Translations under genes and position numbers: made by a program
Notes under the pieces: generated by a model
The model's database searches: none
Told to the model about the DNA's origin: nothing
Seen by the model: only the letters and a program-made list of their open reading frames with translations
Shown: in pieces, positions 56 to 60,680 of the stretch
Position numbering within the stretch: the stretch's first letter is position 1
How the letters are laid out: each line of letters begins with the position of its first letter
From: Eledone cirrhosa
Lineage: Eukaryota
DNA length: 64,000 bases
Direction: 5' to 3'
Assembly: GCA_964016885.1 (NCBI GenBank)
Contig: OZ024742.1
Span: forward strand, 243,846,001-243,910,000

Positions 56-3000
56 ATTATTATTATTATTATTATTATTGTTCTTTGAGTCTCAGTCATT
101 GATGTTATTTAACTGGAAAGTTTGTTGAAATGAATATCAAGCCACTACCTGCAGCCTCAGATATTCAGGACGTATTGGATGGTTCTTGCTGTTCCCAGCA
201 AGCATGCCTTTTGAAGTGTTCCAAAAAGCGGGGCGGGACCAATTTTCTTTAACCATCCTTGGAAACTCTTTGCGCCTATGACTATCGGGACCACTTTGAC
301 CTCATGGCAGTTCCAAATCCTTTTTACTTCCCACTTTAAGTGCTGGTATCGGTTAATTTTCTCCCTCTCCTTCTCTTGCACTCTCGTGTTGAATGGGCAG
401 GCTACATCCACAATCAGGCACGATCTCTTTTCCTTGTCCCAAACCACCAGGTCAGGTCTATTGTGTTCCAGTTTCTTGTCCGTCTGTATCCTAAAAACCC
501 ACAGCACCTTCACCTGATTGTTTTCTATCACCGACTCTGGCTTATGCTCATACCACTTCTCAGAATATGGTATATTGTTTACTTTGCATAGGTGCCAGTG
601 GATCACCCTGCCTATCACATCATGTCTCCACCCTTTATAGTGTGTCTGGGTTAGGTGTTTACACTCGAATACAATGTGAGCCACAGTCTCCTCTCTCTCT
701 CCACAGATCCTTCACAGTGGGCTAGCCTCCTCCTTGTAAATATGGTGTTTCAGCCACTTCGTTTTGAGGGCCTGCTTTTGCGCAGTCATTAGCATTCCTT
801 CTGTAGCCTTTTTAAGGTCTCCTCTTTTCAACCAGTTCCATGTCTGTGGATCTCTAAATTCAGTTTTCTCAAAGAAGGTACTATGAAGTGATTTTTCATG
901 AAGGTTGCTCTTTCTCCTTGTTGTTATTTCCTCCTTGGACATCCCCTGGCTTATTGTCCTCTCCTTCAGTACAATTCTGAGCATTGGCTCCCTACTATCA
1001 GTCACGTATTTGTGTAGGTTGTTTTTCTCCATCTGAACACAGTCCTCTATGCTGATAAGACCTCTTCCACCTTCAGATCTCCTTAAGTTGAGTCTATCGA
1101 CATCACTCCTCTTGTGGAACATGTAGATAGTCAATAGCTTCCTAGTCTTCCTATCCATTTCTTTTTGTTCAGCACATTCCATCTCAGAATTCCTGCACTG
1201 TACCTAATGATAGACACAGCTCGGGAATTTACTGCACTTATGGCATTCCTACTGTTCAGATGTGATTTTAATACGCTCCTTACTCTCCGAATGTATTCAG
1301 ATCTTATCAATTCCTTCAATTTTTTGTTCTTGATGTCATCTGCCTCCAGAACACCTAAATATTTGTATTCTTCTTCAGTATCAATTTCCTTTATCATCTC
1401 ACCTGTTGGTACCTGGATTCCGTTGCTTCTGCTCAATTTACCCCCCTTCATCACAAGGACTCCACACTTACTAATACCAAATTGCATACATATATCATTG
1501 CTGAAAATACGGACAGTGTCAACAAGCACATCCAACTCCTTATCACTCTTCCCGAAGAGCTTAAGAACGTCCATGAAGAGGAGGTGATTGATGGTAAGCT
1601 CTCCCTTTCCCAACGTGTATCCTGCTCTCACTTTTCGCAGTATAATGGTCAGGAGGATCAGGGCAAGGACAAACAACAAAGGAGACAAACTATCTCCCTG
1701 AAAGATACCTCTCTTGATCTTCACGCCTCCCAAGGATTCTCCGCCCGATGTTAACTCTGTTTTCCAGGACTTCATACTGTTGCTCAACAACTGTCTGATG
1801 TTATCTGCCACCTTGAAGATCTCTAGGCTTTTGGTTCTCCAAGAATGAGGTACCATGTCGAATGCCTTTCTGTAGTCTATCCATCCCATGGCAAGACCAG
1901 TGTATCTCCTCCTGCAATTCCTCATTACCATCTTATCAATAAGTAACTGGTCCTTTGTACCACGGGACTTCTTTCGGTATCCTTTCTGTTTGTCCGGTAA
2001 CAAGTTGTTTATGTGGAGGTGATGGTAGATTTCCTCAGACACAATGCTTGTTAACAGTTTCCACATTACGGACAGACATGTGATAGGTCTATAGTTGGTA
2101 ACATCATTACCCTTGGTTCGGTCTTTCATTACCAGAACTGTGGTACCTTTTGTCAACCACTCTGGTACCTCACCTGGCATCAAGCAGTTATTGAACATGG
2201 TTGTCAGTTTCGGGTGGAGGGATGTTATATTTTTAATCCAATACCCTTGCACACTATCTGGGCCTGGTGATTTCCAGTTGGTTAGTTTTCTGGCCTGCCC
2301 CTTAAGAGTTTCAACTGTGATACTCAAATCAGTTTGTTGGTGTGCCTCTTCACTAATCTCCTTTTGTACTGTCTCAATCGACACTGCCTGATCATTATGT
2401 TTAACATCCTGCTCCCATATTCCTCTCCAGAATGTCTTAGTTTGTTCCGCCTCAGGGATCAAGTCGTTGCCTCTTTCTTTCCCTTCAAGCTGTCCAAACA
2501 ACATTTTCTGGTTGTTGTCAAACATGCGGTTCTGTCTATACTGACTGACTCTGCTCGCGTATCGCCTAATCTTTGTGCTCTTTACTACAATGCGTTGCTT
2601 CAGTTCCTCTATGATAATATTTAGCTTTTTCCTCCTAGTTTTGTACTTTATTTCCAGTCTATTTTTAGTGTCTGTGTTTTGTAGTGTCCCATTCAGTAGT
2701 GTCCCATTCAGCAAGCTTTCCAATGTCATTTCTCATTTCCCTGATTTGACCATTCAGTCGTTTCTTCCACCAAGGTTCTGATCTTTCTTGTCTGTTGTTT
2801 CCTCTCGCTTTTATGCCAAGTAATTTTCTCACCACATTTGCTTTGAGGATATTGTTGCATTGGTGAAGGTTCCTCGCCTCAAGGTATGGGATGACTTTGT
2901 TTACCTTAGGTGTTGTTTCTTTTAACTTTTTCCTGTCTACAAATCTTAGGTTCATAGGTGTCCCACTATCATTGTTCATTTCATCTACCACTAAGTTTAG

Positions 3001-3749
3001 GATATCAACCAAATCTTGTCCTAGCCCGTCAGTATTTATTTCCTCAATGGCCGTATCTTTGTTCCAGGTATTATTTATTTAAGCATTCAGATCATTGTCT
3101 GCTTCGGATGCTTCCTCCGTTCTCTCAACCTCTTCACCTTCATTTCCCACTGGCTCGTTTGCCTGGCATACTCCACTCTCCATTTCCAACCTAATCTCTC
3201 TGTTCAGTTCCTCCAGTTCCAGCTCGCTTATCCACCCATTAGTTCTTATTACCCGAGCCTGCCTGGCCAATTTTTGTTCATCTAATTTAAATAGACCAAT
3301 CTCGTTCCAGATGTTATGCATCCGTTTCCTATAGCCTTTTTCCTTGGGGTTACTCTTCAGGTAACATTGCATAACAGTTCTATTCAATTCTTTCGTCCAG
3401 TTGGTTCTGGTCCCTTTCCTTCTTCCGCCAACACCAGCAGTATTTGGGTGACAGCCAGGTCCCTGCTGCTGGGCCAGGGAGCACCTGCTGGGTGAGAGTC
3501 TGCCACATGACATTCCAGTCTCCACTTCACCGTTATTCGAACTGTTTAGGTTCGACATTTAAACACTCATATCGAGGATTGGTGAATGTATGGTTACATA
3601 ACCCCCGGTGATTTGATCACCCCCGGTGATTTTAGCGTGGCACTATCACACTGTAGACGAACATAAATAAATAAACAAATAAATAGTTAAAAAAATAAAA
3701 ATAAACATAAGTTTCATTGTAATGTAATGTTTGAATTTCTGACTTAGTT
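56..3749 (-). pseudogene. R4/Dong-like element, copy 1 (whole ORF present but frameshifted; RT motif FMDD changed to FMDV)
   Basis: ORF pieces 3079..3558, 2665..3012, 1131..2729, 712..1182 and 157..684 are collinear with the copy-3 protein. A short tandem duplication of GTGTCCCATTCAG at ~2685-2712 causes one frameshift. The (AAT)n tail is at ~56-79. Confidence 0.93.
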
Positions 3750-4883
3750 TTTTTTATTATTATTAATATTATTATTATTCTTTGAGTCTCAGTCATTGAT
3801 GTTAGTTAACTGGAAAGTTTGTTGAAATGAATATCAAGCCACTACCTGCAGCCTCAGATATTCAGGATGTATCGGAGGGTTCTTGCTGTTCCCAGCAAGC
3901 ATGCCTTTTGAAGTGTTCCAAAAAGCGTGAAGGGGCCAATTTTCTTTAACCATACCTGGAAACTTTTTGAGATAGTCCCTAGTGCGCCTATGACAATCGG
4001 GATCACTTTGACTTCATGGCAGTTCCAAATCCTTTTTACCTCCCACTTTAAGTCCTGGTATCGGTTAATTTTCTCCCTCTCCTTCTCTTGCACTCTCGTG
4101 TCGAATGGGCAGGCCACATCCACAATCAGGCACGATCTTTTTTCTTTGTCCACAACCACCAGGTCAGGTCTATTGTGTTCCAGTTTCTTGTCCGTCTGTA
4201 TCCTAAAATCCCACAGCACCTTCACCTGATCGTTTTCTATCACCGACTCTGGCTTATGCTCATACCACTTCTCAGAATGTGGTAAATTGTTTACTTTGCA
4301 TAGGTGCCAGTGGATCACCCTGCCTATCACATCATGTCTCCAGCCCTTATAGTCAGTCTGGGCTAGGTGTTTACACTCGGATACAATGTGAGCCATAGTC
4401 TCCTCTCTCTCTCCACAGATCCTGCACAGTGGGCTAGCCTCCTCCTTGTAAATATGGTGTTTCAACCACTTTGTTTTGAGGGCCTGCTCCTGCGCAGCCA
4501 TTAACATTCCTTCTGTAGCCTTTTTAAGGTCTCCTCTTTTCAACCAGTTCCATGTCTGTGGATCTCTAAATTCAGTTTTCTCAAAGAAGGTACTATGAAG
4601 GGATTTTTCCTGAAGGCTGCTCTTTCTCCTTGATGTTATTTCTTCCTTGGACATCTCCTGGTCTATTGTCCCCTTACTATCAGTCACGTATTTGTGTAGG
4701 TTGTTTTTCTCCATCTGAACACAGTCCTCTATGCTGATAAGACCTCTTCCACCTTCAGATTTCCTTAAGTAGAGTCTATCGACATCACTCCTCTTGTGGA
4801 ACATGTTGTAGATAGGCAATAGCTTCCTAGTCTTCCTATCCATTTCTTTTTGTTCAGCATCATTCCATCTCAGAATTCCCGCA
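3750..4883 (-). mobile_element. R4/Dong-like element, copy 2 (5'-truncated; late RT/CCHC/RLE region and 3' UTR)
   Basis: ORF 3854..4843 is near-identical to the C-terminal third of copy 3, with an in-frame loss of EPMLRAVLKE. Its (AAT)n tail at ~3755-3779 abuts the 5' UTR of copy 1. Confidence 0.92.
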
Positions 4884-4994
4884 TATTATTATTATTATTA
4901 TTATTATTGTTATTGTTATTCCTTGAATCTCAGTCATTGATGTTGGTTAACTGGAAAGTCCGTTGGATTGAATATCAAGCCACTACCTGCAGCC

Positions 4995-7900
4995 TCAGAT
5001 ATTCAGGACGTATCGGAGGGTTCTTGCCGTTCCAAGCAAGCATGCCTTTTGAAGCGTTCCAAAAAGCGTGAAGGGGCCGATTTTCTTTAACCATCCCTGG
5101 AAACCTTTGGAGATAGTCCCCAGTGCGCCTATGACAATCGGGATCACTTTGACTTCATGGCAGTTCCAAATCCTTTTCACCTCCCACTTTAGGTCCTGGT
5201 ATCGGTTAATTTTCTCCCTCTCCTTCTCTTGCACTCTCGTGTCGAACGGGCAGGCCACATCCACAATCAGGCACGATCTTTTTTCTTTGTCCACAACCAC
5301 CAGGTCAGGTCTATTGTGTTCCAGTTTTTTGTCCGTCTGTATCCTAAAATCCCACAGCACCTTCACCTGACTGTTCTCCATCACCGCCTCTGGCCTATGC
5401 TCATACCATTTCTCAGAATGTGGTAGATTGTTTACTTTGCACAGGTGCCAGTGGATCACCCTGCCCATCACATCGTGTCTCCAGCCCTTATAGTGGGTCT
5501 GGGCTAGGTGTTTACACTCGGACACAATGTGAGCCACAGTCTCCTCTCTCTCTCCACAGATCCTGCACAGTGGGCTAGCCTCCTCCTTGTAGATATGGTG
5601 CTTCAACCACTTCGTTTTGAGGGCCTGCTCCTGCGCAGCCATTAGCATTCCTTCTGTAGCCTTTTTGAGGTCTCCTCTTCTCAACCAGTTCCATGTCTGT
5701 GGATCTCTAAATTCAGTTTTCTCAAAGAAGGTACTATGAAGGGATTTTCCCTTAAGGCTGCTCTTCCTCCTTGATGTTATTTCCTCCTTGGGTATCCCCT
5801 GGCCTACTGTCCCCTCCTTCAGTACAGCTCTGAGCATTGGCTCCTTACTATAGGTCACGTATTTGTATAGGTTGTTTTTCTCCATCTGAACACAGTCCTC
5901 TATGCTGATAAGACCTCTTCCACCCTCAGATCTCCTTAGGTAGAGTCTATCGACATCACTCCTCTTGTGGAACATGTTGTAGATAGTCAATAGCTTCCTA
6001 GTCTTCCTATCCATTTCTTTTTGTTCAGCAACATTCCATCTCAGAATTCCCGCACTGTACCTAATAATAGACACAGCTCGGGAATTTACTGCGCTTATGG
6101 CATTTCTGCTGTTCAGATGTGACTTCAATACGCTCCTTACTCTCCGAATGTATTCAGTTCTTAACAATTCCTTCATTTTTTTGTTCTTTATGCCATCAGC
6201 CTCCAGAACGCCCAAATACTTGTATCCTTCCTCAGAGTCAATTTCCTTTATCATCTCACCTGTTGGTATCTGGATCCCGTTACTTCTGCTCAACCTACCC
6301 CTCCTCATCACAATGACTCCACATTTACCAATACCAAACTGCATACATATATCACTGCTGAAAATACGGACAGTGTCAACAAGCACATCCAACTCCTTCT
6401 CACTTTTCCCGAAGAGCTTAAGATCGTCCATGAAGAGGAGGTGATTGATGGTAAGCTCTCCCCTTCCCAACTTGTATCCTGCTCTCACTTTTCGCAGCAT
6501 AATGGTCAAGGGCATCAGGGCAAGGACAAACAACAGAGGGGACAGGCTATCTCCCTGGAAGATACCTCTCTTGATCTTCACGCTTCCCAAGGATACTCCA
6601 GTTGATGTCAACTCTGTCTCCCAGGACCCCATACTCCTGCCCAGCAACTGTCTGATGTTATCTGCCACCCTGAAGATCTCCAGGCTTTTGGTGATCCAGG
6701 AATGAGGCACCATGTCAAATGCCTTTCTGTAGTCTATCCATCCCATGGCAAGATCAGTGTGTCTCCTCCTGCAGTTCCCCATTACCATCTTATCAATAAG
6801 CAACTGGTCCTTTGTACCACGTGACTTCTTTCGGCATCCTTTCTGTTCGTCCGGCAACAAGTTGTTTGTGTGGAGGTGATGGCAGATTTCCTCAGACACA
6901 ATGCCTGTCAACAGTTTCCACATTACGGGCAGACATGTGATAGGTCTATAGTTGGTAACATCATTACCCTTGATTCGGTCTTTCATTATCAGAACTGTGG
7001 TACCTTTTGTCAACCACTCTGGCACCTCACCCGACACCAAGCAGTCATTGAACATGGCCGTCAGCTTCGGGTGGAGGGATGTTAAATGTTTAATCCAATA
7101 CCCCTGCACACCATCTGGGCCTGGTGATTTCCAGTTGGTTAGTTTTTTGGCTTGCCCCTTAAGAGTTTCAACTGTGATACTCAAATCAGTCTGTTGCTGT
7201 GCCTGCTCACCGATCTCCCTCTGTACTGTCTCAATCCACCCTGCCTGGGTATTGTGTCTAACATCCTGCTCCCATATTCCTCTCCAGAATGTTTTAGCTT
7301 GTTCCGCCCCAGGGATCAAGTCGGTGCCTCTTTCTTTCCCCTCAAGCTGTCCAAACAGCATCTTCTGGTTGTTGTCGAACATGCGGTTCTGTTTATACTG
7401 ACTGACTCTGTTCTCGTATCGCCTGATTTTGGCACTCTTTGCTACAATGCGTTGCTTCAATTCCTCTATGATAATATTTAGCTTTTTACTCCTAGTTTTG
7501 TATTTTATTTCCAGTCTATTTTTAGTGCCTATGTTTTTTAGTGTCCCATTCAGTAGTGACTCAAGCTTTCCTATGTCATTTCTCATTTCCCCGATTTGCC
7601 CACTCAGTCGCTTCTTCCACCACGGCTCTGCTCTTTCTTGTCTGTTGTTTCCTCTCGCTTTTATACCAAGTAGTTTCCTCACCGTATTTGCTGTTGCTTT
7701 GAGGATATTGTTGCACTGGTGAAGACTCCTCGCCTCAAGGTATGGGATGACTTTGTTTACCTTAGCTGTTGTTTCTTTTAACTTTTTCCTGTCTACAAAT
7801 CTTAGGTTCATAGGTCTCCCACTATCATTGTTCAACTCATCTACCACTAAATTTAGGATGTCAACCGAATCTTGTCCTAGCCCGTCAGCATTCATCTCCT

Positions 7901-8387
7901 CAGTGGCCGTATCTCTGTTCCAGGTATTATTTATCTCAGTATTCAGATCATTGTCTGCTTCGGGTGGTTCCTCCGCTCTCAGGACCTCCTCACCTTCATT
8001 TCCCGCCGGCTCGCTTGTCTGGCATACTACACCCGCCATCTCCAAGCCATTCTCTCTGCTCAGTTCCTCCAGTTCCAGCTCGCTTATCCACCCATTAGTT
8101 CTTATTACCCGAGCCTGCCCGGCCAATTTTTGTTCATCTAATTTAAATAAACCAATCTCGTTCCAGATGTTATGCATCCGTCTCCTGTAGCCCCTCTCCT
8201 TGGGGTTACTTTTCAGGTAGCATTGCATAACAGTTCTATTCAATTCTTTCGTCCAGTTGGTTCTGGCCCCTTTCCTTCTTCTTCTTCCTCCAACATCAGC
8301 AGTATTTGGTTGACAGTCAGGTTCCTGCTGCTGAGCCAGGGGGCACCTGTTGGGTGAGAGTCTGTCACATGACGTTCTAGTCTCCAT
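4995..8387 (-). CDS. Intact ORF (1130 aa) of an R4/Dong-clade non-LTR retrotransposon: reverse transcriptase, CCHC zinc knuckle and restriction-like endonuclease
   Basis: RT motifs NWKSPGPDG, NYRPITCL, IDYRKAFD, RGIFQGDSLSPLLF, LLFMDDLKL, YKYLG. CRICGEREETVAHIVSEC (CCHC), RHD, then RPDLVVVD...IVDV and KINRYQDL (RLE). No stops or frameshifts. Confidence 0.95.
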   Translation of the reverse strand: METRTSCDRLSPNRCPLAQQQEPDCQPNTADVGGRRRRKGARTNWTKELNRTVMQCYLKSNPKERGYRRRMHNIWNEIGLFKLDEQKLAGQARVIRTNGWISELELEELSRENGLEMAGVVCQTSEPAGNEGEEVLRAEEPPEADNDLNTEINNTWNRDTATEEMNADGLGQDSVDILNLVVDELNNDSGRPMNLRFVDRKKLKETTAKVNKVIPYLEARSLHQCNNILKATANTVRKLLGIKARGNNRQERAEPWWKKRLSGQIGEMRNDIGKLESLLNGTLKNIGTKNRLEIKYKTRSKKLNIIIEELKQRIVAKSAKIRRYENRVSQYKQNRMFDNNQKMLFGQLEGKERGTDLIPGAEQAKTFWRGIWEQDVRHNTQAGWIETVQREIGEQAQQQTDLSITVETLKGQAKKLTNWKSPGPDGVQGYWIKHLTSLHPKLTAMFNDCLVSGEVPEWLTKGTTVLIMKDRIKGNDVTNYRPITCLPVMWKLLTGIVSEEICHHLHTNNLLPDEQKGCRKKSRGTKDQLLIDKMVMGNCRRRHTDLAMGWIDYRKAFDMVPHSWITKSLEIFRVADNIRQLLGRSMGSWETELTSTGVSLGSVKIKRGIFQGDSLSPLLFVLALMPLTIMLRKVRAGYKLGRGELTINHLLFMDDLKLFGKSEKELDVLVDTVRIFSSDICMQFGIGKCGVIVMRRGRLSRSNGIQIPTGEMIKEIDSEEGYKYLGVLEADGIKNKKMKELLRTEYIRRVRSVLKSHLNSRNAISAVNSRAVSIIRYSAGILRWNVAEQKEMDRKTRKLLTIYNMFHKRSDVDRLYLRRSEGGRGLISIEDCVQMEKNNLYKYVTYSKEPMLRAVLKEGTVGQGIPKEEITSRRKSSLKGKSLHSTFFEKTEFRDPQTWNWLRRGDLKKATEGMLMAAQEQALKTKWLKHHIYKEEASPLCRICGEREETVAHIVSECKHLAQTHYKGWRHDVMGRVIHWHLCKVNNLPHSEKWYEHRPEAVMENSQVKVLWDFRIQTDKKLEHNRPDLVVVDKEKRSCLIVDVACPFDTRVQEKEREKINRYQDLKWEVKRIWNCHEVKVIPIVIGALGTISKGFQGWLKKIGPFTLFGTLQKACLLGTARTLRYVLNI

Positions 8388-8956
8388 TTCACCGTTATTC
8401 GAACTGTTTATGTTCGATATTTAAACACTCTTATCGAGGATTGGCGAATGTATGTTTACATAGCCATCTGTGGATCCGCCATCCCACTTGGCCCTTGTGT
8501 GGCATTATCACCACGCTGTATACGGACACACATAAACAAACAAACACACGGGCAGAAAGGGTCCCAAAAATGAATAAGCATAAGTTTCATTGTAATGTAG
8601 TATTCGAATGTCTGACTTAGTTTTTGTTTTTTAAGTTTTACTTTTTCCCCCCTCTTCTCTGTCCGTCCGCCTGCTTCTCTCTTCATTCTTATTTTCTTTA
8701 CGTTTTTGGGGTTTCTTTTTTTGTTTTTGTTTTTCTCTGTTTTTCTCGTTTTTTACTGTTGTTGCTGTGCTGCTTTTGTTGTTTGTTTTTTCTTTTTTCT
8801 TTTGAGTCTATCTATATATTTTGATGCCTTCCTCTTTGTTAGTAGTAGGAATTCTATAATGTGGAAGTGGTAGCCAGCAGAGACTGGCGGCGTTGGCGAT
8901 ACTGAGACAGTGGTGGTGGTGATGTCGATACCGAGGCAGTGGTGGCGGTGATGCGA

Positions 8957-14400: not shown

Positions 14401-14402
<2 letters not shown>

Positions 14403-15575
14403 AAGCTGATGTATGTTATCCAACCATCTTGCTTGGTGTCTATCCATGGGTCTGCTGTCGGTTGGTTTTGCCCGTAAAATCTGTCCAGCGAATCTTTCCT
14501 GCGACATACTAAACACATGCCCATAGTGTCAGAGCTGTGATCTCTCAATTTGGAGAAGTAGCAGCTCTATCTGCAGTGGTTCTCTAATCTTCGAGCTATG
14601 TACTCTATTGAGTAACGTTACTCCTAAGACCCTTCGAGGAACCCCATTTTGGCCACTTATATTCACGATTGTATTCTTTTGGTCATTACCCAAGAATCAT
14701 AACTTTCGGTAAGGGTTGACACGAATACTGAATTAAAGATAGCAACTTTGGCTTTTACACCTACCCTCCTTCTTCTGATGATCGAATGTTGAAGCTGGCA
14801 CATTACTGCACCAGCTTCTGCAATTTTTGTACTTAATTCAGCCTCCTGCCTTCCATCACTCGCAAACACAGCCCCAAGATACTTGAACTTCTCCACCTGC
14901 TTCAGTGGAACTCCATTCACATGTAGCAGGCTTCCTTGAGAGGATGAGTGCCTCAGTTTTCACAGCACTGATTTTCATTCCAGCCATGCAGCACTCAGCA
15001 TCAAACATATCAAGTGCAAGTCAGAGATCACCTTCCATAGAGTTAGCACAATATCATCTGCAAATTTCAATCAACTGGTTTTACACCTGCCAATCGTGGT
15101 ACCACTTCCAAACTGACTGCGCATGTCAATCCTGTTCATGTAAACAATTGTTTCTACTTTTGGCACAAGGCCAGCAATTACCCAGTACATTACTGGTACT
15201 TTATTTTATCGATCCCGTAAGGATGAAAGGCAAAGTTAACCTCAGCGGGATGTGTACTCAGATCATAAAGGGACGTAACTATGCTGGAAAGCATGTCCGA
15301 CCTTCTTCTGATACTGCCAATCCCATGTAAATAATGAACAGGAGAGGTGACAGTATGCACCCTTGACGGAGTCCAACTTTCGCATTGAATGGTTTCAATT
15401 TAGCACCATTTATCTGAACACAAATACTTGGGCATTCGTATAGAGACACCAGGGCAGCAAGAAGCTGACCATCGATCCCATATTCCTGCAGAACCTTCCA
15501 CAGCAGGTCCTGAGGAAGTGGCCATATGCCTTTTTGAGGTCTACAAAACAAGAATATACCCCAGTACTTACTTTT
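14401..15575 (-). mobile_element. RTE-clade LINE fragment (family 1), interrupted by a SINE
   Basis: Translations CFVDLKKAY, VGLRQGCILSPLLFIIYM, LKQVEKFKYLG and ARWLDNI, with frameshifts. Confidence 0.88.
15149..15323 (-). mobile_element. tRNA-derived SINE (family A) inserted in the RTE
   Basis: Reverse complement of the 18033-type SINE. TSD CATGTAAA(C/T)AAT at 15137-15148 and 15324-15335. Confidence 0.85.
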
Positions 15576-18655: not shown

Positions 18656-19084
18656 TTAAAAGAAATTTGAGGTATGAAGTAAGTGATATAGGAGTTGGTT
18701 AGGGTGTTGAACTTATAATCGTGGATTGTTGCATTATTGTCATTAGCTGAAATGAATGAATACTATCAGCAGCTGAGGCCAAACCCTGCATGTGACTCAA
18801 TTATCATAGAGTGAAGAGTGTTGTGCTCTCAGTTGCTTAATGCCAGTAAGACCAGGATAAACTCCAGTATGATGAGCATCTGCGCTTGAGACAGACTCTA
18901 ACTTATGGACTTAAAGTTGAGACATTGAAATACCACCTAGGAGAACACGTGTGTAGATTAGCCTCCTCTCCCTATTAAAATATTTAATAACACAATTTCA
19001 GCAAAGCAGGAGCAGACTTAATAAAACATATTCTACTGTTCAGACCATAAAAATAATTTTTGAAAGACTGTAATTTCTGTCAGT

Positions 19085-19612
19085 AATGCACCACCTTCAG
19101 CATTCAGTCATCAGAAGGGAGGTAGACGTAAAAGCCAAACTCGCTATCTTCAATTTCGTATTCATGCCAACCCTTACCTATAGTCATGAATCTTGGGTAA
19201 TGATAAAAAGAATATGATTGTGAATACATGTGGCCGAAATGGGATTCCTCTGAATGATCTTTGGAGCATCGGTACTTGATAGAATGCATAACTTGGAGAT
19301 CAGAGAGTTGTTCCGGGTAGAGCTGCTTCTCTGAATTGAGAGATCACAGCCTTAATATTATGGGCATGGGGTCAGAATGTCTAAGGAAAGAATCACTGGA
19401 CAGATTTTATGGACAAAACTAGCTGGCAGGAAACCCAGGGATAGACTCTGAGCAAGATGGTTGGATAACATCCATGAGATTGGCTGATCTGACTTGGGGA
19501 TCAATCTTGATCAATTGGAGAGGGTTGCTTCTGACAGGACCCGCTGAAAGGCATGCTTGATGACTCTGCCCCCACGATCCTCCCAGGAATAAGTGGGCGA
19601 AGAAGTAATGTC
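19085..19612 (+). mobile_element. RTE LINE family 1, 3' fragment
   Basis: Reverse-complement match to 14401-14800. Encodes GRKPRDRL*ARWLDNIHE and ends in CCCAGGAATAAGTGGGCGAAGAAG. Confidence 0.8.
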
Positions 19613-25842: not shown

Positions 25843-26352
25843 TCCTCCTCCACCTCCTCGGGAGGGTCATGTGGGTTGAGTCTTCAAACCCTAAGTAGCA
25901 ACCGTCTCCAATTGATCTAGCTAGGTCTCCTGCCAGTTGGTTTTGCCATTGACATTCTAACCATATGTCTGTAGTATCAGAGCTGTGATCTCTCAATTTG
26001 GAAAAATAGTGGCTCTACCTGGAGCAACTCTTTGATCTCTGAGCTATGCCTTCTATCAAGTAACGTTACTCCAAAGACCCTTTGGAGGAACCCCATCTCA
26101 GCCGCTTGTATTTGCAATTGTATTCTTTTAGCCATTACCCAAGATTCATGATCTTAGGTAGGGATTGGCGCGAACATCGAATTGAAGATAGCACGTTTGG
26201 CTTTTACACCTATCTCCTTTCTTCTGATTACCGAATGCTGAAGCTGGTGCATTACTGCACCAGCTCTGCATTTCTTGCATTTAATCCAGCCTCCTGCCTT
26301 CTGTTACTCATGAACATGGCTCTGAGATACTTGAACTTCTCCACTTGCTTAA
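25843..26352 (-). mobile_element. RTE LINE family 1, 3' fragment with internal deletions
   Basis: Collinear with 14450-14900 (CTGAGATACTTGAACTTCTCCAC = VEKFKYL on the minus strand). Confidence 0.8.
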
Positions 26353-29277
26353 ACAATATTTAAAATATTCCCTGTATAAATATATAAGAAACCTTTACTG
26401 ATATATTTTGTTACAAATAACATAGGAAATGATTCATTTCAAGGCTTACAATAATAATAAATCTATTAATATCAACTCTCATCTGTTGTCTTCCTGATAG
26501 TCCTTCCAGATCTTCTTTTAATTGCTGTTAGGCTTTGCAATAAAAGCTTTTTTTTTTTCTGCCAGAATAAAATAAAAAAATGATGTTTAGTTGTAAGTCT
26601 GCCCTAATTATGCAGAACTATGACAAAGGCATTGTAGTCATGAACATCTGATCTGCAAGATAGCTGGATAACATCCATGAGCTTCATTGGTCTTGCTTGG
26701 GGATCCAGCCGAATCAATTGGGGCCGGTTGTTTCTGACAGGGTCTGCAGGAAGGAGTTGAAGATCATCTGTAAAAAAGGAGTGTTGGCAATTAATTCATT
26801 ACTTTGTTATTTGTTGATTAAAAGCAAAGCTAGTAAGATTTGTATGATGAGTTATGAGGCATTAAAGAATCATCTATCTTGGTCCTCTGCAACATTTCCC
26901 TTATTCTGATAAACTCATCACCCCTGTATTGTAGCCTTTTCTGAACATTTTCTATTGGTGATATTCAAAACTATCTTATCTGTTTAAATTGTTTTCATTT
27001 TTGTTTTTATGTCTGTGTCTAATTAGTTATATTTAATTACCTATCTAAGCTTGTAAATTAGTGAGCATAATTGTTAAATAGATAAAGTAAACAATTGTGT
27101 GATGTGTATGTATTTGTTATTGTTAGATAGATGAAAGCAAGTACTAATATACTGTAAAACATATTGAATAAACCAAATTTAATTTCTTGTTACTATACAT
27201 TGACATAAAAGTGGTGATGGCTGAACTTGTATATTGGTTCATATCTAACTACAACTGTTTTGGGGTAGAATGAACTTGAATATCATGTTCAAAGGAGCTT
27301 TTAACTTTCTTTATGACTAGTATATAACCTGTTGTTTTATGGATGGAATAAGTAATATTCAATTTCTTTATGAAAATTTAACCAAGCTGTTTGTGGAGTA
27401 CACACATACATAGAGGGAGAAAGAGAACACTGTTGACAAAGCACCCTAATTTCTGTTATGAATGAAAGCATTTTGAACCCCCACCCCATACCACTTTCTT
27501 ATCTTACATTTGTATTTCAGAAATTTTAAATAAAGATCACAGTGTCCCTGTGACAGACTGACAAAAAGGTTGTGCAATTATAATATAGATACTGTGTGTG
27601 TATTAGAGAGAGGGCTACTCATCTATAACTGTGTTGCTCCAGTCTTCATATCCACCTAGGAATGGCTCTGTAAAAATTTAACTTGTAATAATAGATTAGT
27701 ATTATTTTTGAGTAATATCTGTCTCATCTACTTATCCATTCAGAAACTAAAGCTAAACACTAACCTACTTAGCCAACTAACATTCAGAAAGTATTTAAAA
27801 AAATTATACTGACTTGATACTTTCTTCAAGGTTGTAAAAAGAGCCCTGAAGTATGAGAGTTGGGAAATTTTCTTTCTTCAGTTTTATTTTTTAAATTTTC
27901 TTTATTTATTTCTTTATTTTTAGATATTTTATTTCCCCAAATATATTATATTTGTTGGTGAAATTCATGAGAGAAAAGAAATCATGATGTACTAAGCCAG
28001 GCTATCAATTTCTTAAATTTGTTGAGGTTTTAAAGAATATTTCAGTTCAGCCTGTTTTATCTAATTCATTTTCTTGTTCATTACTAAATAGATCCATTTT
28101 TGAAATTTAACTAACATTGAAATTTAACTAACATACTTAAGTATAAAATAAACATGTTGAAAACCTCTTAGTAAATGTTATTGCTTTAAGAAAAAAATGT
28201 ATGAGCCAAATTAGATATTCTAGAAATGAATATTTTAAATGTTTCCTGAGATAGAATATGGTTAGAATGTCTAAGGAAGGAATTGCTGGACATATTTTAC
28301 TGGTAAAACCAACTGGCAGGAAACCCAGAAGTTGACCACAAAGCTCAGTTGGTTTTGCTTGGGTTTCTTAAATAAACATAATAAACTAATTGTGTGTGCA
28401 TGAGCATATACTGCCTTATGCCAATTTTGAAAACTAGTTATGATTAATAATAAATATCACAGTGGACCTTTTGGTAACAAATATCTGTGGTAATGAAAAC
28501 GAAAATGCCATGTGTTTTTCCACAAATTTGGTAATGAATAAAGTATAACTACAGTTTAGTTCCACCCATCCTAACTTAGTTTCTTCACCTCTTTCTTAAT
28601 AATGCATATTTTTAAAAGTTTAGCAGATACATTTTCCATGCATGGATTGGGATTATGATATTTAAAAAAAAAAAAAATAAATTAAATATGTTCGATAATG
28701 TTTTCATTTACTGAATACTTTCCATTTGCACCTGTAGTAAACTGGGAAAATTTTTCATTATGCCTTTCAATTTCATGTTGAAAGTAAGAAATTTCATTGA
28801 GATAATGAATAATATAAAATCAAGATAATGCCATAGATCTTCTACAGGCATGCAATATTTCAAACCACTATGAATTGCAGGGGAGGGTTAGATTTCTTTT
28901 AAATTTCATCAATATAATCGTAATTTAAACATTCAAATATGTATCTTTGTAAAATTTCATTAAAAAATATGCAATCTTAAGAGAGTTATGAGTTAACAAA
29001 TTTGAGTGGCCACTAAACTAAACAAAACGTGGCTTGGGATCACTTATGCAAATTATGTGTGAGTATGTATGAGTGTTAAGTTATTTTCCTTCGTTCATAC
29101 TCGTCGGTTACCAAGACAGACAAAACATTGATGAATTGAATGCCAATTCTTTTGTTCAGTATATTTATTCTTACAATTTATAGTTTTATTGAAATATTAT
29201 TATGCTGTATTTATTGTAGTCACTTATATTTTTATTGATAATTTGTGTTTTATTATTTTCTAAAAGTATTTTTTATC

Positions 29278-41437: not shown

Positions 41438-41640
41438 CTGGGCAAAAACGAACTGGCAGGAAACCCAGGGGGTAGACCCTGAGCAAGATGGTTTGATAAC
41501 ATCTATGAGCTTGGATGGTCTCGCTTGGGGATCTAGCTGAATCCATTAGAGATGGTTGCTCTTGACAAGACTGGCTGGAAGACGTGTTTGAGGACTCTGC
41601 CTCTACAACCCTCCCAGGAATAAGTGGGTGAAGAAGAGGT
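41438..41640 (+). mobile_element. RTE LINE family 1, extreme 3' end
   Basis: Matches 19410-19610. Confidence 0.8.
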
Positions 41641-51333: not shown

Positions 51334-52320
51334 GACCGGCTGCCCATGGGAACTCCTATATGCAGATGATCTAACACTCATAGCTGAATAAATGGCTGAA
51401 CTAGAGAAGAAATTCCAAACATGGAAGCATGGCCTAGAATCAAAAGGCCTTAAAATTAACCTGTCTAAGACTAAAGTTCTAGTTTGTAGGAAGGAAAATA
51501 GGGCACAGGTGCTCTCAGGGAAATGGCCATGCTCAGTGTGTAGGAAAGGAGTAGGCAGAAACTCCATTTTATGTCCCAAATGCAAAGTATGGGTGCATAA
51601 AAGATGTAGTGGGATCACAGGTAAGCTAACTAAGAATATAGATTTTATATGGGGCCAGTGCTCTGGTGCAATAAGTAGCAGCAAGTGCCCACAGAATACT
51701 AGCTCATTCCATTGCACAGATGGTTCTATAGAAATAGTGGACACCTTCCGTTACTTGCGTGGCAAAATCAGCAGTGGTGGAGGGTGTTCTGAAAGTACAG
51801 TAGCTAGAGTCAGAACTGGATGGAAAAAGTTCAGAGGGCTTATACCACTATTAGCCGCTAAAGGGTTCTCTCTAAAAATGAAAGGCAGGCTGTATGATGC
51901 CTGCATACGAACAGCAATGTTACATGGCAGTGAGACCTGGGCATTGTGTGCAGAGGATATACGCAGACTGGAGAGGAACGAAGCTTGCATGCTCCGCTGG
52001 ATGTGTAATAGTAATATACGTGAACGGCAAAGCATAAACGAACTAAGGGAAAAATTAGAAATAAGAGGGATCAGATGTTGTTTATTCGAGAGAAGACTAC
52101 GTTGGTATGGTCACGTGATGCGCATGAAAGACGACAGCTGTATAAAAAAAGTGCAGGGCAATAAAAATAGATGGTAGCCACGGAGTAGGCAGATCCAGAA
52201 AAACCTGGGACGACTTGATAAATTCCGACCCCAGACACTTACACCTCTCCAAGACAATGTCACTGGACCGAGATCTTTGGTGCTACACAGTAATACAGAA
52301 GACCCGCCTTACCTAAGTAC
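51330..52320 (+). mobile_element. RTE-clade LINE family 2, 5'-truncated (includes ORF 51392..52177)
   Basis: PWELLYADDL; Cys-rich insert GKWPCSVCRKGVGRNSILCPKCKVWVHKRCSG; AMLHGSETW; RRLRWYGHVMR. The 5' end abuts (TA)n at 51274-51329. Confidence 0.9.
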
Positions 52321-53679: not shown

Positions 53680-55960
53680 GCTGGATCTTCTCTTGCATAT
53701 GTCCCCAATCACCACATTTCTTTGCCATCTCTGTCATGAGGTTCAGTTTCTTGAGATCAGTTTTTACCTACATCTTACTAGATAACCCTCTCCTAAAGGT
53801 TCTATCCACTTCAAGCATTCAGTATTTCTTTGTAGAACTAACATTCTCCATATGCATCACATGTCAATATCAATGCAGTCTTCTTTTTTGTACACTATTT
53901 CTGATTCTGCTTATATCTAGTGGAGCATGCTCACTTCTTTTCTTTCCAGCTGTCATAGGTCTTCCACATTCAAGTCATCATACCTCAAACACAAATATCA
54001 TTCAATGTGCTCTTCATTCTAAGGAAAAAAAACAACTCCCTGAACTTTCTTCACTGGCAACTTTGTATTTGGTATACACATCTCTACTACTAATTAGGTC
54101 ACCCTGTTTACAAAGGCTATCAACTTCTTTCACTGTGCCTTTAAAGTACTTATGAGAATTTTTTTCACATATCTTCTTACTGCTAACTGCTCTTGTTCAT
54201 TTGCCACATATGATGTTTACCTTTCATGCCAGCCTGCTTGCAATCCCACTACACCTTTTGTATGTCCCAAAGATACACTGGGTATACTGCATGGAATTTC
54301 TACCTACTCCTTTTCTGTAATGGTACTTTCCATGATGGCTGCTGAATCTTGTCTTCTTTCCTACTTATTAAGATTTTAGTTCTTGCCAACTTTAGTCTGG
54401 GTCACTTCAAATCTAAGTTTTGCATCCACATTTTCAATTTCTTTTCTAACTCTTCTAAATCAGCTTTAGGAATTAGGCCATCAGTATACATGAATTCTTA
54501 TGGAGAGTAATTCTTAAAACCCCTGTTATGGCCTGGAAGTCTGTAATAAACAGGAGGTGAGGTGAGAACTAAGCCTTGGTGGACCCCTACCTGTATGAAT
54601 TTCTGACTCCCATCTTGCTGACTTTGATTAGCCCTTACAAGCTATCCATTTACCTCTAGTTTCCTGAGCAACCATCATATCATAGAGCATAGGACTCTGT
54701 CAAAATTCTTCTCCATTTTAATGAATGCTAACTATAGGGGCTTATTCCTAGCTAAGTACTTTTTCCTGACACAAATCTGAACTGCATTTCGTCTACTTCA
54801 ATTTCACTTCTGATTAATATTACAATAATTTTTTCTGTAACTTTCATAATCTAAACCAGCAATTTGATGTCTCTGTAGTTTCCACACTCTAGTGTATCAT
54901 ATTTTCTCATGTCAAATTTAATAATGATATTGCTACACTAAGTCTTTGGATATGGTGTCTTCCTGTATTATTTGATTTACTTTGCAAAGGACTAACAAGT
55001 GTCCAACTTTACCAGCTGTTTTAAGTATTTCAACAACTAATCCTTTCTTCACTTCATATTCTTAATTGGGTTTGAAATCATACTGCTGCTGACTTTAATG
55101 GCTTGTTCCTCTGTTGGGTCTTTTTGAATAGACCCTCTCTTATGCATTCTCCACATTCCACAGCTTCTTATAAGAACGCTGCTATACTTTTTTTCTCAAT
55201 ATTAATAAGAGCAAATGTGCTGTTATCATTCCATACACATTTCTCCCTAACGAGGCTCTACCCTGCAATTTGATACAGTTCAGGCCTCTAGCCCCCAGAT
55301 CGCAGAACATGTGTACACTTTGTACTTTTTGCTTTCCCCTTTCCCACAGGTATATTGGACATCTAGGCTCTCTTCTAGCTACTTGGTATTGTTCTTTGCT
55401 GCCATCTGTTTTCCAGATTTTTCAAGCCTATCTCTTACCTTTTTATAGTTCTATCTACAATATTATTCGACTTCTATGTGACCTTCCATTTGGTTGGAAC
55501 CTTGCACCAGCTCCACATCTGGCCTGTAGCTCTCAGCAAGTTGGCCTGTATTGAATTCCCAGTTGTCCTCCTCTATCCCCTCCAACCCGTCATACTCATC
55601 AACTAATACTTCTCTGAATCTACAACCAGCTAGGGTTCTTTCAGCCGACACATTTTCTATCACCAGAGTTTCTTGTGTATCTGGATCCATCTAACTTTAA
55701 CTATGAAGTCACTAATAATTACCCTGTTTCCTGGTGAATATAAAATCTATCTTGTTTGTTTGCTTGATTAATAGGTGATCAGGTTGTTTGCACCCTTTCT
55801 GAAGTTAGTGTTGCAAATGGTTATATTATTTGTTTCACAGAAGTCCATTCCTCTTACTGTGACCATAGCCTCCATGTACTCAGGGGAAACCTTAATGATG
55901 TTGCCCAACATGTCCATTAAAATCACAATCCAGGATAATCAAGTCACTATCAATCAATAT
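53680..55960 (-). mobile_element. RTE-clade LINE family 2, long heavily decayed copy (APE + RT)
   Basis: Minus-strand remnants DFNGHVGQH (APE), NYRDIKLL and VGVHQG, with many stops and frameshifts. Confidence 0.75.
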
Positions 55961-56419
55961 TGTGATCACCTATAGAGAAAAGAACTCCCTTCGATTATGA
56001 ATGACCATGGAATTTGCACTTAGAAAGTTCCTTTCAGAGACAAGTCCAGAAAGTTCCTTTCAGAGACACAAGTCCAGGCAAGGCCCTTTTGTGGAAGACT
56101 AGCAGTTGCCCATGCATACCAGTCTCCCCTCTCCACACCATTGATGTTGTCCAAGGGAAAGACAATGGCTGATACAGCTTGGCACCAGTGACATTACAAC
56201 TGATTTATACAGCTGAGTAAAGGGTCTCATAAATGTGGTCCTTTGTAATACACATATTCATACCAACAGTTTATATATAAGATTGCACAAAATATCCAGC
56301 ATTCTAACTCATGCTAACACTTATGCTAAAATCCCATCAATGCTATGAGCTCTTTGATTTTTAAGCTTGTCCAAAGAATCTCTTACTTCATTGAAAATAA
56401 GTGGATCATATGTTTCTGA

Positions 56420-56595
56420 TTTCCTCCTCCCCATTCCTGAAAGGGTTGTGGGGGCAGAGTCCTCAAACATTCCTTCCAGCAGGTCCTGTCAGAAGCAACT
56501 GTTTCCAACTGATCCAGCTCGATTCCCAAGCAAGACCAACCAAACTCATGGATGTTATCCAACCATCTTGCTCAGGGTCTACCCTTGGGTCTCCT
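56420..56595 (-). mobile_element. RTE LINE family 1, 3' piece (left of the Transib insertion)
   Basis: Reverse complement of 41455-41620; stops at ...GGGTCTCCT. Confidence 0.85.
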
Positions 56596-56909
56596 GTGCC
56601 CAGAATGCCAAATTTGGGGATAAATTCATATATCCGCAAAAAATTGGCACAAAGAAGTTGTTTATAGCTCGTTGGAAGTGTTTTGGCAAGCTGCAAATGA
56701 TGGAATTAAAACTATTCACAGAAAACATCTAATTTTGAAGATATAACTCGATTTCCTTTTCTGCATTCTGCTGTAAAAATTGTTTAATTGCCATGATTTG
56801 TGGTTGGCGGAAAAATAAATGGATCAGATTTATAAATTTTATCAATTACTTCATAGGGATGGATTTGACATACTTAGAGAAGGAGTGTCTCTCTATGGCA
56901 CTCTGGACC

Positions 56910-56944
<35 letters not shown>

Positions 56945-59229
56945 CTTGTTTATATTGTCATGAATTACGGCTTGCTAGAATTATGGCTTGCCAATAATGT
57001 TATTTGGACAAAACCTGTTCCAAACAGCACTGTGTTTGCTCATCCAGTTTTGTTGGTACGAGCTGTAGAGGATTGAATGTGCTGTCTGCAGAACTTGAGC
57101 CTTCTTTGAATGTTATCAGGGAAAGTTTTGGTACATGTGTCACAGTGAATGACATAAATGTGAATGCCATGTGCAAAATAGTGTTCAATGATTGACAGCA
57201 AGATGGTATCTCTTCTTCAAGGTGACACTGGTGCATTCTGTCATTTATACCATTGGCACCCACAAGAGCTGTTGCAAATTCTTACTTCATTAATATTTGA
57301 TTGGTTCCAGATAACAAAGGATTATAATTTCTGTAATGAAGCATGGGAAAAATTGGTTGCTGACAAGATACCATATTTTAGCAGTGAAAGGAGGGTCAGT
57401 GCCATAAAAACATCATAAAAGCAGATTTGCATTGTTTCTGAGTCTTCCACTTCAAACTGAGATCATTAGATTTTGCTCAAAAGATTTTGTATCACTTGAT
57501 CGCTGGTCAAACATGGGGTGAAGCTGGAAATCTATTGTCCAAGCCACAGTGCATTAACCATATCAGGTCCACTTACCCAGTGGAATAAGTGGGAACACCA
57601 ATATGGGACGATTGGCTGACAGACTTTTCAGTCCGAAAAACTGCCAAAATATATGTTCTCTCAATTTGAACCAGGAAGACTAGGACAATTATAAAATATT
57701 CGTGTCTCTGACCAACGTTATGCTCCATGTCATACAATCAGTGAACGAGAAAGTAAACGTCTGCCAGATTGAAGGCACTTGGGATAGATTTAATGTTACA
57801 CTTAAAAAAACTAATTTCTCGATGTGAGAGGCTTCTCATGGGTGGTTATAATTGCATCATTTCATCAAATGTGTGCTTGCAGCTGGGAACTTTTTGAATG
57901 GAATGGTGGGTAGTCAATTGGGAAATGGAGTGAAAACCCACTTGAAAGTTGGAACAAGTACAGGCCATTCCAGAGTGGGGCAGCTGCATGATCTTGCCAG
58001 TTTTCAGTAAAAGACAATATTTATATCTTCCAAAGGATGCTTATAATGTCTCATTTGGAAATTTCATCGAAAAGATCTTGCCCTAGCTGCTCCATTTGTG
58101 GAGAAATAAACACACAGTTCAATTACTCAGACATAAGAATGCTTCAACGTGGGAGGAAAGCATAATTGCCTCCATGTATTTTACAAAGACATTGAGTATT
58201 GAACTTGTGGGGCACTAGAAAATTTTATCTTTGTATTAGTTTAAAAGTCTGTACTGATATATGCATTTAGTTTCAAAATGTATAATCTTTTCTAAGTTCT
58301 CCTACATATGTATTGGTTATTGCAAAGCCTCTATATTATTTCTAAATGTCAATTATTGCTCAACATCAAGTCCCTCCCATATGGTGACTATTTTAGATGG
58401 AGTTGCCCCTCTAATTTCAGGGTTTTAGACATTTTTTTTTCCGGCCAGACCAAAGTTTCCTTGATGATAGTGCCAAAAGCACCTGACTATCCTGAATTGG
58501 ACACTAGGATAATGAAATGTCTCTAAATATCTATATTAAACATTTCAATCCATTTGTGTATCATTGTATTGGGTACCATTAAACAAAAGTGTGGCTTAAC
58601 ACAAAAGTATGCGTTATTTTTATGGGGAACTGATGTGTTGCAAGCTCCAATAAAGAACATTCAAGTCAGCATAACACTTCCACTTGTAAGTCATTTTAAT
58701 TGAATTTTTGCTCGAAAGTCCATCATAGCCAGAGGATTCCAGAAAGTAACTGTATAGTGTGGAATGCTGTGAAATTTTTTAAATTTTGGTTTTCTGAAGA
58801 CTTTCTTAGAGCAAAAATGGAATAATTTCATTACAATGAATTATTACATTTCGAAAGGTTGCTTGATTTTTGTTAGACTTGTTTAGAAAACTACACTTAG
58901 GAGGAGGGTAAAATTCAATAAATTATCTTTGAGAAAAGTGCCAGTTCAATCTCTGGTTTATTGGCTTTGATATTTTATGACCTTTTTATTTTGAATGATT
59001 TTTCAATGTATTTTGGGGATTTTTGTTAACTAATTTTTTTTGTGCAAAAAAAAAAAAAAAAAGCGATGATTAACTTTAAATTATCATAAAATGCTTTTGG
59101 CACAATCTTTTTAGGTGTGGTTTTTTTTTTGCTTCTTTCCCCTAAAGGTCTTATTCAACAGAACATTTGCAATAAACAATGATAGGAAAAACTTCAATAA
59201 TAATATTTTCACACTCTGGGTGCACTGTG
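56596..59229 (+). mobile_element. Transib-superfamily (RAG1-related) DNA transposon, decayed, with 5' internal deletion
   Basis: The right end reads CACAGTGCACCCAGAGTGTGAAAAT on the minus strand, and a degenerate left counterpart GTGCCCAGAATGCCAAAT lies at 56596. The RTE sequence resumes at the matching position after 59229. A transposase pseudogene lies inside. Confidence 0.85.
56800..58125 (+). pseudogene. Transib / RAG1-core-like DDE transposase pseudogene
   Basis: Motifs in order across frameshifts: VIWTKPVPNSTVFAHPVLLVRAVED; MIDSKMVSLLQGDTGAFCHL; ERxGQCHK...VFHFKLRSLDFAQKILYHL; SGNTNMGRLADRLF; SFHQMCACSWEL; SIGKWSENPLESWNK; CSICGEI-H. Confidence 0.88.
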
Positions 59230-59847
59230 GGGTGGTTTTGCTTGTAAAATATGCCCAGCAATTCTTTCCTGAGCATTCTAACCACATACCCATAGTATCG
59301 GAGTTGTGATCTCTTAATTTGGAGAAGTAGCGATTCTACCTCAAGTGACTCTTTGATCATCAAGCTATGCCCTCTATCAAGTAATGTTACTCCAAAGACC
59401 CTTTGGAGGAACCCCAATTCGGTCGTTTGTATTCGCGATTGTATTCTTTTGATCATTACCCACATATAAGGGTTGACACAAATACTGAATTGAAGGTAGC
59501 AAATTTGGCTTTTACACTTACCTCCCTTTTTTGACTATCGAATGCTAAAGCTGGCACATTACTGCACCAGCTCCTGCAATTCTTGCACTTAATTCAACCT
59601 CCTGCCTTCCATCACTCGTGAACATGGCCCCAAGATACTTGAAGTTCTCCACCTGCTTCAGTGGAACTCCATTTACATGTAGAGTGCACTGTGCAGGCTT
59701 CCTTGAGGGGACGAGTGTCTCAGTTTTTGCAGTACTGATTTTCATTCAGCTGGAATTTGTAGATGACATGGTATTACTTAACTCAACAGAAGGTGATCTC
59801 TTACTTCCACTTGATAGGTTTGACGCCGAATGCTGCATGGCTTGAAT
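59230..59847 (-). mobile_element. RTE LINE family 1, continuation right of the Transib, with an inverted 5' segment (59747-59847)
   Basis: Minus strand encodes LKQVENFKYLG and SQLRYYGYVVRM. The upstream piece FVDDMVLL...FDAECCMA lies on the plus strand. Confidence 0.85.
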
Positions 59848-60346
59848 CTTTAAATTAACAGTTCTTTATTGAGTTAATAAGTTATCATTTTAACAGAGTT
59901 GTTTACATAGGTTTCTTTGCAAGGATAATATATTTTATACATGTTTAGTATTATAAAGGAACTAACCCTTGCTTTTGGACTTTGTAAACTTCAATACTTC
60001 TTTTGAAATTTGGTAAATCTTATTTTTAATGACACTTCATAGTAATATACTTCAAAGAATTAAAACCTTTCTCTAACTCTTGTAAGGCAAGAACTTTCCT
60101 TTAATTTTGCTGCCTGAACTTGTTTTAAGTGTTGAAAATTCTGTTTACTAATATTAGGTCTTTGAACTTCAGTTTAACTCGTCTTTTAACATTTGGGCAC
60201 ATTTCATATCATTCACATCTTTCTTTTCAGTTAGAATATAATCAACCATGTGTCATTTTCTGGAATCTAGGTGCATCCAAGTTCCTTTGTGAATATCTTT
60301 ATGTTCCAAGAATATGTTAGAGACAATCAAATACATTTCTGTGTAT

Positions 60347-60680
60347 GGAGGCACATGGCTTAGTGGTTAGAGCATTGGCCTTGCAATCGAAAGGTTGTGA
60401 GTTCAATTCTCAGACCGGGTGATGTGTTGTTTCCTTGAGCAAGACACTTTATTTCACATTGCTCCAGTTTACTCAGCTGTAGAAATGAGATAAGGACTGG
60501 GGTCCCTATCATTCCACTGTAAAGTGGAGGTGCCACAGCAAAAACCACCCAGCACTCACTGTAAATGAGGTTGGTGTTAGGAAGGGCATCCAGCTGTAGA
60601 AATCAAGCCAGAATCAGTTCCCGTCCCACCCTTGCAAGCAGGGAAAAAAGCGGACGTAAAATGAAATGATGATGATAATG
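60347..60680 (+). mobile_element. tRNA-derived SINE (family B head) with RTE-type tail
   Basis: GGAGGCACATGGCTTAGTGGTTAGAGC A-box, GAGTTCAATTC B-box, CCTTGAGCAAGACACTT core, and a tail ending TGATGATGA. Confidence 0.8.

Follow-up and report, generated by a model that had tools for sequence, protein, structure and literature searches.

Transib transposons and the RAG1-like (RAG1L) transposases are the closest described systems to the locus studied here. Tao et al. (2022; PMC9435367) defined Subgroup I Transibs, which carry alpha11-alpha12, a CTT1 tail (Cx2Cx3GHx4C), a GRP motif and asymmetric terminal repeats, gave as members a ctenophore element, Hydra Transib-9 and a Ca. Thioglobus contig, and termed the subgroup possible intermediates between Transib and RAG1L; in Subgroup II, alpha11-alpha12 is lost and the tail is of the CTT2 type. 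Subgroup I is the proposed source stock of RAG transposons, and the only Transib with structures in our PDB search, HzTransib (6PQN, 6PQX), is a Subgroup II member. According to excerpts of Martin et al. (2023; PMC10629977), asymmetric ends, a CCGHC tail and a GRP motif are all known from Transibs, and excerpts of Martin et al. (2020; PMC7204232) supply the tail motif together with criteria that divide Transib from RAG1L. For molluscs, an excerpt of one survey lists a single Transib in a total of 14,275 ORF-based elements (PMC10294476), and excerpts of PMC9885083 and PMC8355894 hold nothing on cephalopods; in the literature searched, partly as excerpts and including the supplement and species table of Tao et al. 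(Repbase and Dfam lay outside this search), we found no report of a cephalopod Transib.

In this study, we analyzed a 64-kb window of Eledone DNA, by which we mean the whole stretch of 64,000 nucleotides, and compared one locus in it with these systems. We conclude with considerable confidence that the locus is a dead, 5′-deleted Transib copy, most likely of Subgroup I, likely moved by the transposase of an intact copy that was not found. The family to which it belongs is a member of the Transib superfamily, placed there by sequence, fold, ends and target-site duplications; it is not RAG1L, and the locus itself is a fossil without any function. A preliminary description had confined the feature to 56800..58125, but the element spans 56597-59229 and, with the repeat that houses it, comprises the following parts.

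56433..56596, no strand assigned: left half of the host repeat, contiguous with the right half in loci L003 and L012 and at window 14402-14926; very high read depth
56597..59229, + strand: whole decayed, 5′-deleted, non-autonomous Transib element; the boundaries of the matches with other copies fall at 56595-56610 and 59210-59229
56597..56615, + strand: remnant of the left terminal inverted repeat; other copies begin CACAGTG, and reads from empty host-repeat sites depart from the window at 56596
56616..56900, + strand: left subterminal region without protein homology (tblastn with six intact relatives gave no match), containing GGKINGS
56900..56901, + strand: junction of the family-wide 5′ deletion, common to 14 of 16 testable copies; copy L002 carries 598 extra coding bases there
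56901..58182, + strand: transposase pseudogene, about aa 272-711, from alignment to relatives and copies
56914..56942, + strand: poly-A run, a 22-nt expansion of the family's short A run, from copy comparison
57194..57196, + strand: second catalytic Asp, family motif MIDGK, aligned with HzTransib MIDGK and RAG1 YDEK (profile A4) and backed by copy column counts
57239..57250, + strand: ZnC2 CxxC, with the second Cys codon Tyr in the window copy, from translation and relative alignment
57287..57450, + strand: insert of alpha11-alpha12 length between ZnC2 and the ZnH2 His, from the Cys-to-His spacing of intact relative P0004
57944..57946, + strand: catalytic Glu (ESWNK), GAA in 20 of 21 copies, aligned with HzTransib EARNK and RAG1 ESGNK
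58088..58137, + strand: C-terminal zinc tail, CxxC...H, His replacing the fourth Cys, from copy and relative alignments
58183..59209, + strand: 3′ non-coding region (about 1 kb), in which no stop-free stretch exceeds 76 aa
59210..59229, − strand: right terminal inverted repeat, intact, beginning CACAGTG, from comparison of the copies' ends
59230..59682, no strand assigned: right half of the host repeat, from unbroken repeat copies and read depth

The Transib copy sits inside another, high-copy repeat, whose unbroken form is found in L003, in L012 and in the window itself. This host repeat has a minus-strand frame that we take to resemble the 3′ end of an RTE-type LINE, and a Pfam search with that frame gave no match; the same repeat occurs elsewhere in the window at 14402-14926, 19081-19590, 25953-26755 and 41457-41621. 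The inserted element belongs to a dispersed 2.7-kb DNA-transposon family, for which a DNA search of the 3.0-Gb genome returned at least 52 matches at 70-86% identity to the window copy (a lower bound, with 40 of 49 candidates scored). These paralogues, gathered as had been proposed, gave a majority sequence, and no intact family copy came to light among the best-scoring candidates in the genome.

The ends of the family carry two marks of the Transib superfamily. CACAGTG stands at both ends across copies, that is, the terminal inverted repeats open with the CAC heptamer, and the right end is intact in the window copy, where the left heptamer and the left target duplication are absent, probably through a deletion of about 14 bp. 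The second mark, a 5-bp target-site duplication, is present at the family level and lost in the window copy itself: among 16 two-ended copies (L025 and L028 omitted), the 5-bp flanks are identical in 4 and match at four or more of the five positions in 7 (permutation with shuffled pairing, p 1e-4), with no clear duplication in the other 9. The flanking sites are often CAnTG-like, a preference described for two Anopheles families, Transib-N1/N2_AG, in an excerpt of Kapitonov and Jurka (2005; PMC1131882). The two ends have about 15 bp in common and then diverge in a side-specific way, a second AT-rich block being offset by about 7 nt, and these side-specific differences are conserved between the Eledone family and an element on a metagenome contig (L070:1693-4042), a 2.35-kb internally deleted relative flanked by an exact CGTTA 5-bp duplication. 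The first 95 nt of the family end are 74% identical to the left end of this element, whose ends are nearly those of the Eledone family though its protein is only 39-48% identical to relatives.

Between these ends, translation of 55500-58800 in three frames recovered the motifs of the preliminary description where it had placed them, with VIWTKPVPNS at 56999, MIDSK at 57188, ERR/GQCHK..FHFKLRS at 57385-57465, SGNTNMG at 57588, FHQ at 57860, SIGKW at 57914, the Glu codon at 57944-57946 and CSICGEI at 58088. Their collinearity is far above chance: intact relative P0004 matches the window in 11 collinear ungapped pieces spanning its aa 282-697 (sum E 1.7e-114) and has no further match in the rest of the 64 kb at E<=1. 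The pseudogene is broken by 6 in-frame stops, 9 private frame-breaking indels and 2 frameshifts common to other copies, and its zinc tail is disrupted by a 1-nt frameshift that the copies have in common. These breaks are real, since contigs of independent sequencing runs match the locus with no more than 0-1 differences in each piece.

The copy comparison also shows which residues of the window copy speak for the family. GGKINGS (56803-56826), formerly taken for an eroded first catalytic Asp, lies within the ~300 bp upstream of the junction near 56900 and has no counterpart in the six intact relatives, and that reading is withdrawn. The S of MIDSK is a private change (AGC in 1 copy, GGC in 14) and the M of GNTNMG a decayed ACG, through a CpG change, so that neither is a family trait. 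The RAG1-like SIG survives in part: its G is copy-specific at the locus, at a decayed Ala codon (GGG 2, GTG 8, GCA 5, ACG 4, GCG 3), and SIG nevertheless occurs in the intact relatives P0009 and P0010. As to the suggested CpG decay, the TGA at 57989 goes back to AGA (present in 17 of 22 copies, CGA in none), whereas the TGC at 57995 fits it (TGC 7, CGC 4 and CAC 3 of 22).

The 5′ deletion is a property of the family rather than of this copy. It removes about aa 1-271 (~270 codons) of a transposase of ~711 aa, first catalytic Asp included, and in 14 of the 16 testable copies the 5′ region is fused directly to about codon 272. With P0006 as protein query, 73 matches were obtained among the best-scoring candidates in the genome, all except two of which begin at aa 274 or later. 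Only two copies have N-terminal sequence, and their internal deletions differ: L002 (G000:C28) retains aa 74 onward and is the only one to keep the first-Asp motif KIGVDGPGS, and L051 (G000:C1) retains aa 1-206 and then 648 to the end. At the family level, the first Asp is thus seen in L002, and the second Asp and the Glu in the window copy, which lacks the first. L051 has a short tandem duplication where its reading frame starts. DNA searches of the genome with the N-terminal parts of L002 and L051 matched each other only; another copy, L017, carries an additional 569 bases at the junction, which were absent from the results of these searches and are taken as a foreign insertion.

Because copies have frameshifts in common (a one-base frameshift in the tail, and in most copies a two-base frameshift before the second Asp), the amplified templates were already defective. 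Divergence from the family or column majority (K2P) has a median of 0.089 and is 0.076 for the window copy, and 27 copies, which together contain 127 stops, give a pN/pS of 0.85 (L025, L028 and L030, two duplicate loci and one short copy, were omitted from the alignment), which is in keeping with close to neutral decay. That the locus might instead be a domesticated or still functional host gene masked by assembly errors would draw on its recognizable motifs and on nothing else; the deleted first Asp, the stops and many frameshifts, the agreement of independent contigs with the assembly, a pN/pS of 0.78 for the window copy and the dozens of equally decayed copies refute it.

Placement of the family drew on intact relatives. 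A profile built from the C-terminal fragments led to 42 proteins, many of them intact at 700-720 aa, of which the six closest share 65-74% identity with the family majority in the core region, and a full scan with the middle fragments reached 223 proteins at E<=0.001; these proteins have no informative names. Fragment profiles A1 and A2 alone gave no relevant match in the PDB, so the link to solved structures needed these intact intermediates; comparison of profile A4 with A5 was set aside because they have members in common and the comparison would be circular. An 18-protein profile of relatives matches HzTransib at 154 bits (E 4e-44), the top sequence match among solved structures, BbeRAG1L of ProtoRAG (PDB 6B40) at 54 bits (1e-13) and vertebrate RAG1 at about 50 bits (1e-12), and a broader profile gives 242, 141 and 100 bits in the same order. 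The proposed RAG1/Transib-family remnant is hereby borne out, and by sequence the family is much nearer HzTransib than RAG1L. The AlphaFold model of P0004 (pLDDT 79.7) likewise has HzTransib as its top fold match (Z 28.5), followed by RAG1 (27.7), BbeRAG1L (24.9) and, as the next family, the P element (10.2), but because the HzTransib and RAG1 scores are tied within 1 Z unit, fold alone gives no placement. In a language-model atlas, clusters partly tagged RAG1_RNase_H rank first and RAG1 later. Pfam RAG1 matched only 4 of 12 intact relatives, all under the cut-off; with the Pfam RAG1 and RAG2 models nothing was matched in the genome, an uninformative outcome, as the controls matched nowhere either, and a word-index search with one degraded fragment returned nothing.

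At the family level the element thus shows the superfamily's single DDE transposase of ~700 aa, homologous to the RAG1 core. It resembles HzTransib and Subgroup II in the MIDGK and G-T-N-G motifs, in the 5-bp duplications and CAnTG-like preference and in an autonomous size of 3-4 kb (excerpts of PMC1131882), and departs from HzTransib in two respects. In close relatives (P0004), the stretch between the second zinc Cys and the zinc His measures 65 residues, compared to 31 in HzTransib and 61 in BbeRAG1L (the latter two counted from profile alignments), which leaves HzTransib without the ~34-residue insert, and the HzTransib tail is of the CTT2 type. Insert and zinc tail are both present in our family, in contrast to the alpha11-alpha12 loss and CTT2 tail of Subgroup II; the RAG1L-type tail reported earlier is thereby confirmed and joined by a RAG1-like insert absent from ordinary Transib. 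This insert presumably corresponds to alpha11-alpha12 of the RAG1 structure. The relatives have a CxxCxxxGH tail, and among the first 10 full-length close relatives checked, 9 have a GRP-like motif, which aligns, as a weak match, with the start of the RAG1 nonamer-binding domain.

The insert and tail also bear on whether the locus is what remains of a RAGL (RAG1L-RAG2L) transposon after loss of RAG2L, a route to Transib that has been proposed (excerpt of PMC7204232). BbeRAG1L does share the fold, the insert length, a Cx2Cx3GH tail and 5-bp duplications with the family (excerpts of PMC7204232 and PMC10629977), and CACAGTG is identical to the consensus heptamer of the vertebrate recombination signal sequence (RSS). 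Yet the intact relatives, at ~710 aa, have no RING or other RAG1 N-terminal domain, and neither a RAG1-type N-terminal non-core region nor a greater similarity to RAG1L than to Transib, the published marks of RAG1L, was found: the profile reaches 54 bits with RAG1L and 154 with HzTransib. The 3′ region measures 1.04-1.11 kb in the window copy, the family majority and L051, and no stop-free stretch longer than 76 aa occurs in the 3′ and 5′ non-coding parts of these three, from which we conclude that they hold no RAG2L gene. After CAC, moreover, the terminal repeat differs from those of BbeRAG1L and other invertebrate RAG1L, and the ends are unlike the protostome RAGL consensus CACTWMCAAACKTYKBB (excerpt of PMC7204232). 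These observations largely refute a RAGL remnant, which we regard as highly improbable. Vertebrate RAG1, for its part, shares the DDE fold and the heptamer but has an acidic tail and requires RAG2 and the 12/23 nonamer; no RSS-type nonamer spacing was seen at the ends of the Eledone element.

Subgroup I, in contrast, agrees with the family in the single ~700-aa transposase, the insert of alpha11-alpha12 length, a zinc tail resembling CTT1, the GRP motif, the CAC termini, the 5-bp duplications and the absence of RAG2L, and by these hallmarks the family is in all likelihood a Subgroup I Transib, as judged from sequence and with a tree that holds relatives only and a tail without the published fourth Cys. 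By eye, the Mnemiopsis proteins of PMC9435367 have motifs like those of P0206, P0210 and P0211, which belong to the same profile group. The differences are that the species table of PMC9435367 lists no cephalopod, that the window copy is a 5′-deleted pseudogene, and that the family's subclade has, in place of the fourth tail Cys, a His two residues later. Among 57 tail-bearing relatives (a count that includes some near-duplicate rows), Cys occupies the fourth-ligand position in 30; in 24 a His stands two residues further along instead, and 3 have neither. The Eledone family has the His form, which marks its subclade in the tree and suggests a zinc-ligand switch from Cys-Cys-His-Cys to Cys-Cys-His-His, in a part of the P0004 model that is of low confidence.

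In a quick tree of 48 rows, all relatives, the family groups with P0004, P0006 and P0009 (SH-aLRT 97), and this group lies inside a 30-row clade (SH-aLRT 100). A long branch (1.58) lies between this clade and those relatives most similar in appearance to the ctenophore references. The 30-protein clade could merit its own subgroup. That it should be a separate, undescribed subgroup nearer RAG1L than the published Subgroup I members is, however, unlikely: the long and fully supported branch dividing it from the other 18 relatives, a Cys-to-His spacing of 65 that is nearer the 61 of BbeRAG1L than the 68-80 of other relatives, and 0 matches for five of six diagnostic motifs in the supplementary sequences of Tao et al. 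speak for it, but profile scores run about three to one for HzTransib over RAG1L, all hallmarks have already been assigned to Subgroup I (PMC9435367), and that supplement comprises representatives only, with Repbase members such as Hydra Transib-9 outside the comparison.

A lineage between Transib and RAG1L had been suggested for this locus from the start, rightly as to its kind; as to novelty, such an intermediate is already in print as Subgroup I (PMC9435367). What is new is the exchange of the fourth tail Cys for His in the subclade and the side-specific conservation of the ends with L070. We also entertain, tentatively and as a possibility short of our preferred reading, that a distinct marine clade of RAG1-related Transibs, with GRP motif and zinc tail but without RAG2, and with a tail rewired from Cys-Cys-His-Cys to Cys-Cys-His-His alongside a conserved RSS-identical heptamer, once invaded a cephalopod genome; if so, P0004 and other intact natural relatives could serve directly as models of the ancestor that preceded RAG2. 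Intact transposases of ~710 aa, defined ends and a target preference make it possible to test the pre-RAG2 role of the RAG2-binding insert and the recognition of the terminal repeat by the tail. Provided that the host is a cephalopod, the range of Subgroup I would extend to a mollusc class for which we found no report.

Taking the locus as a dead Subgroup I copy, we propose the following history. The ancestral element, as reconstructed from L002, L051 and the intact relatives, was probably about 3.8 kb long with one DDE transposase of ~710 aa. By analogy with HzTransib and ProtoRAG, a transposase dimer would bind the CACAGTG ends and cut by nick and hairpin, the zinc tail presumably clamping the bases that adjoin the heptamer, and the element would insert without a RAG2 partner, by a chemistry that could leave the 5-bp duplications observed. 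A derivative that had lost the first ~270 codons and kept both ends, a structure shared among the copies, may then have been amplified in trans. The window copy would have inserted into the high-copy repeat, its left heptamer disappearing at a later point. It is thus unable to make an enzyme and likely cannot be moved again.

Beyond the family, searches with the distant relative P0159 returned the Eledone family again and one weak place (L078, G000:C1:168430048-168430209; E 1.8e-4) outside the loci of the family search, possibly another Transib family. P0208, P0213, P0215 and P0041 form a distant clade that keeps the insert and in which the zinc tail motif is absent. No relative was found in viral contigs, and a would-be bacterial member, a single 1.2-kb contig in a bacterial bin, was rejected as evidence. 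The window also houses other elements. An uninterrupted frame of 1141 aa at 4995-8420 (− strand) encodes a reverse transcriptase domain (RVT_1 in Pfam, E 6.5e-22), and two more decayed tandem copies of the same non-LTR element adjoin it at 157-4885 (− strand). At 51392-52177 (+ strand), a 261-aa frame has a PHD-like Pfam match at the cut-off, followed by what we take to be a LINE-like C-terminal part, and is probably a retroelement fragment; 60345-60500 has a tRNA-like head, presumably as is typical of a SINE.
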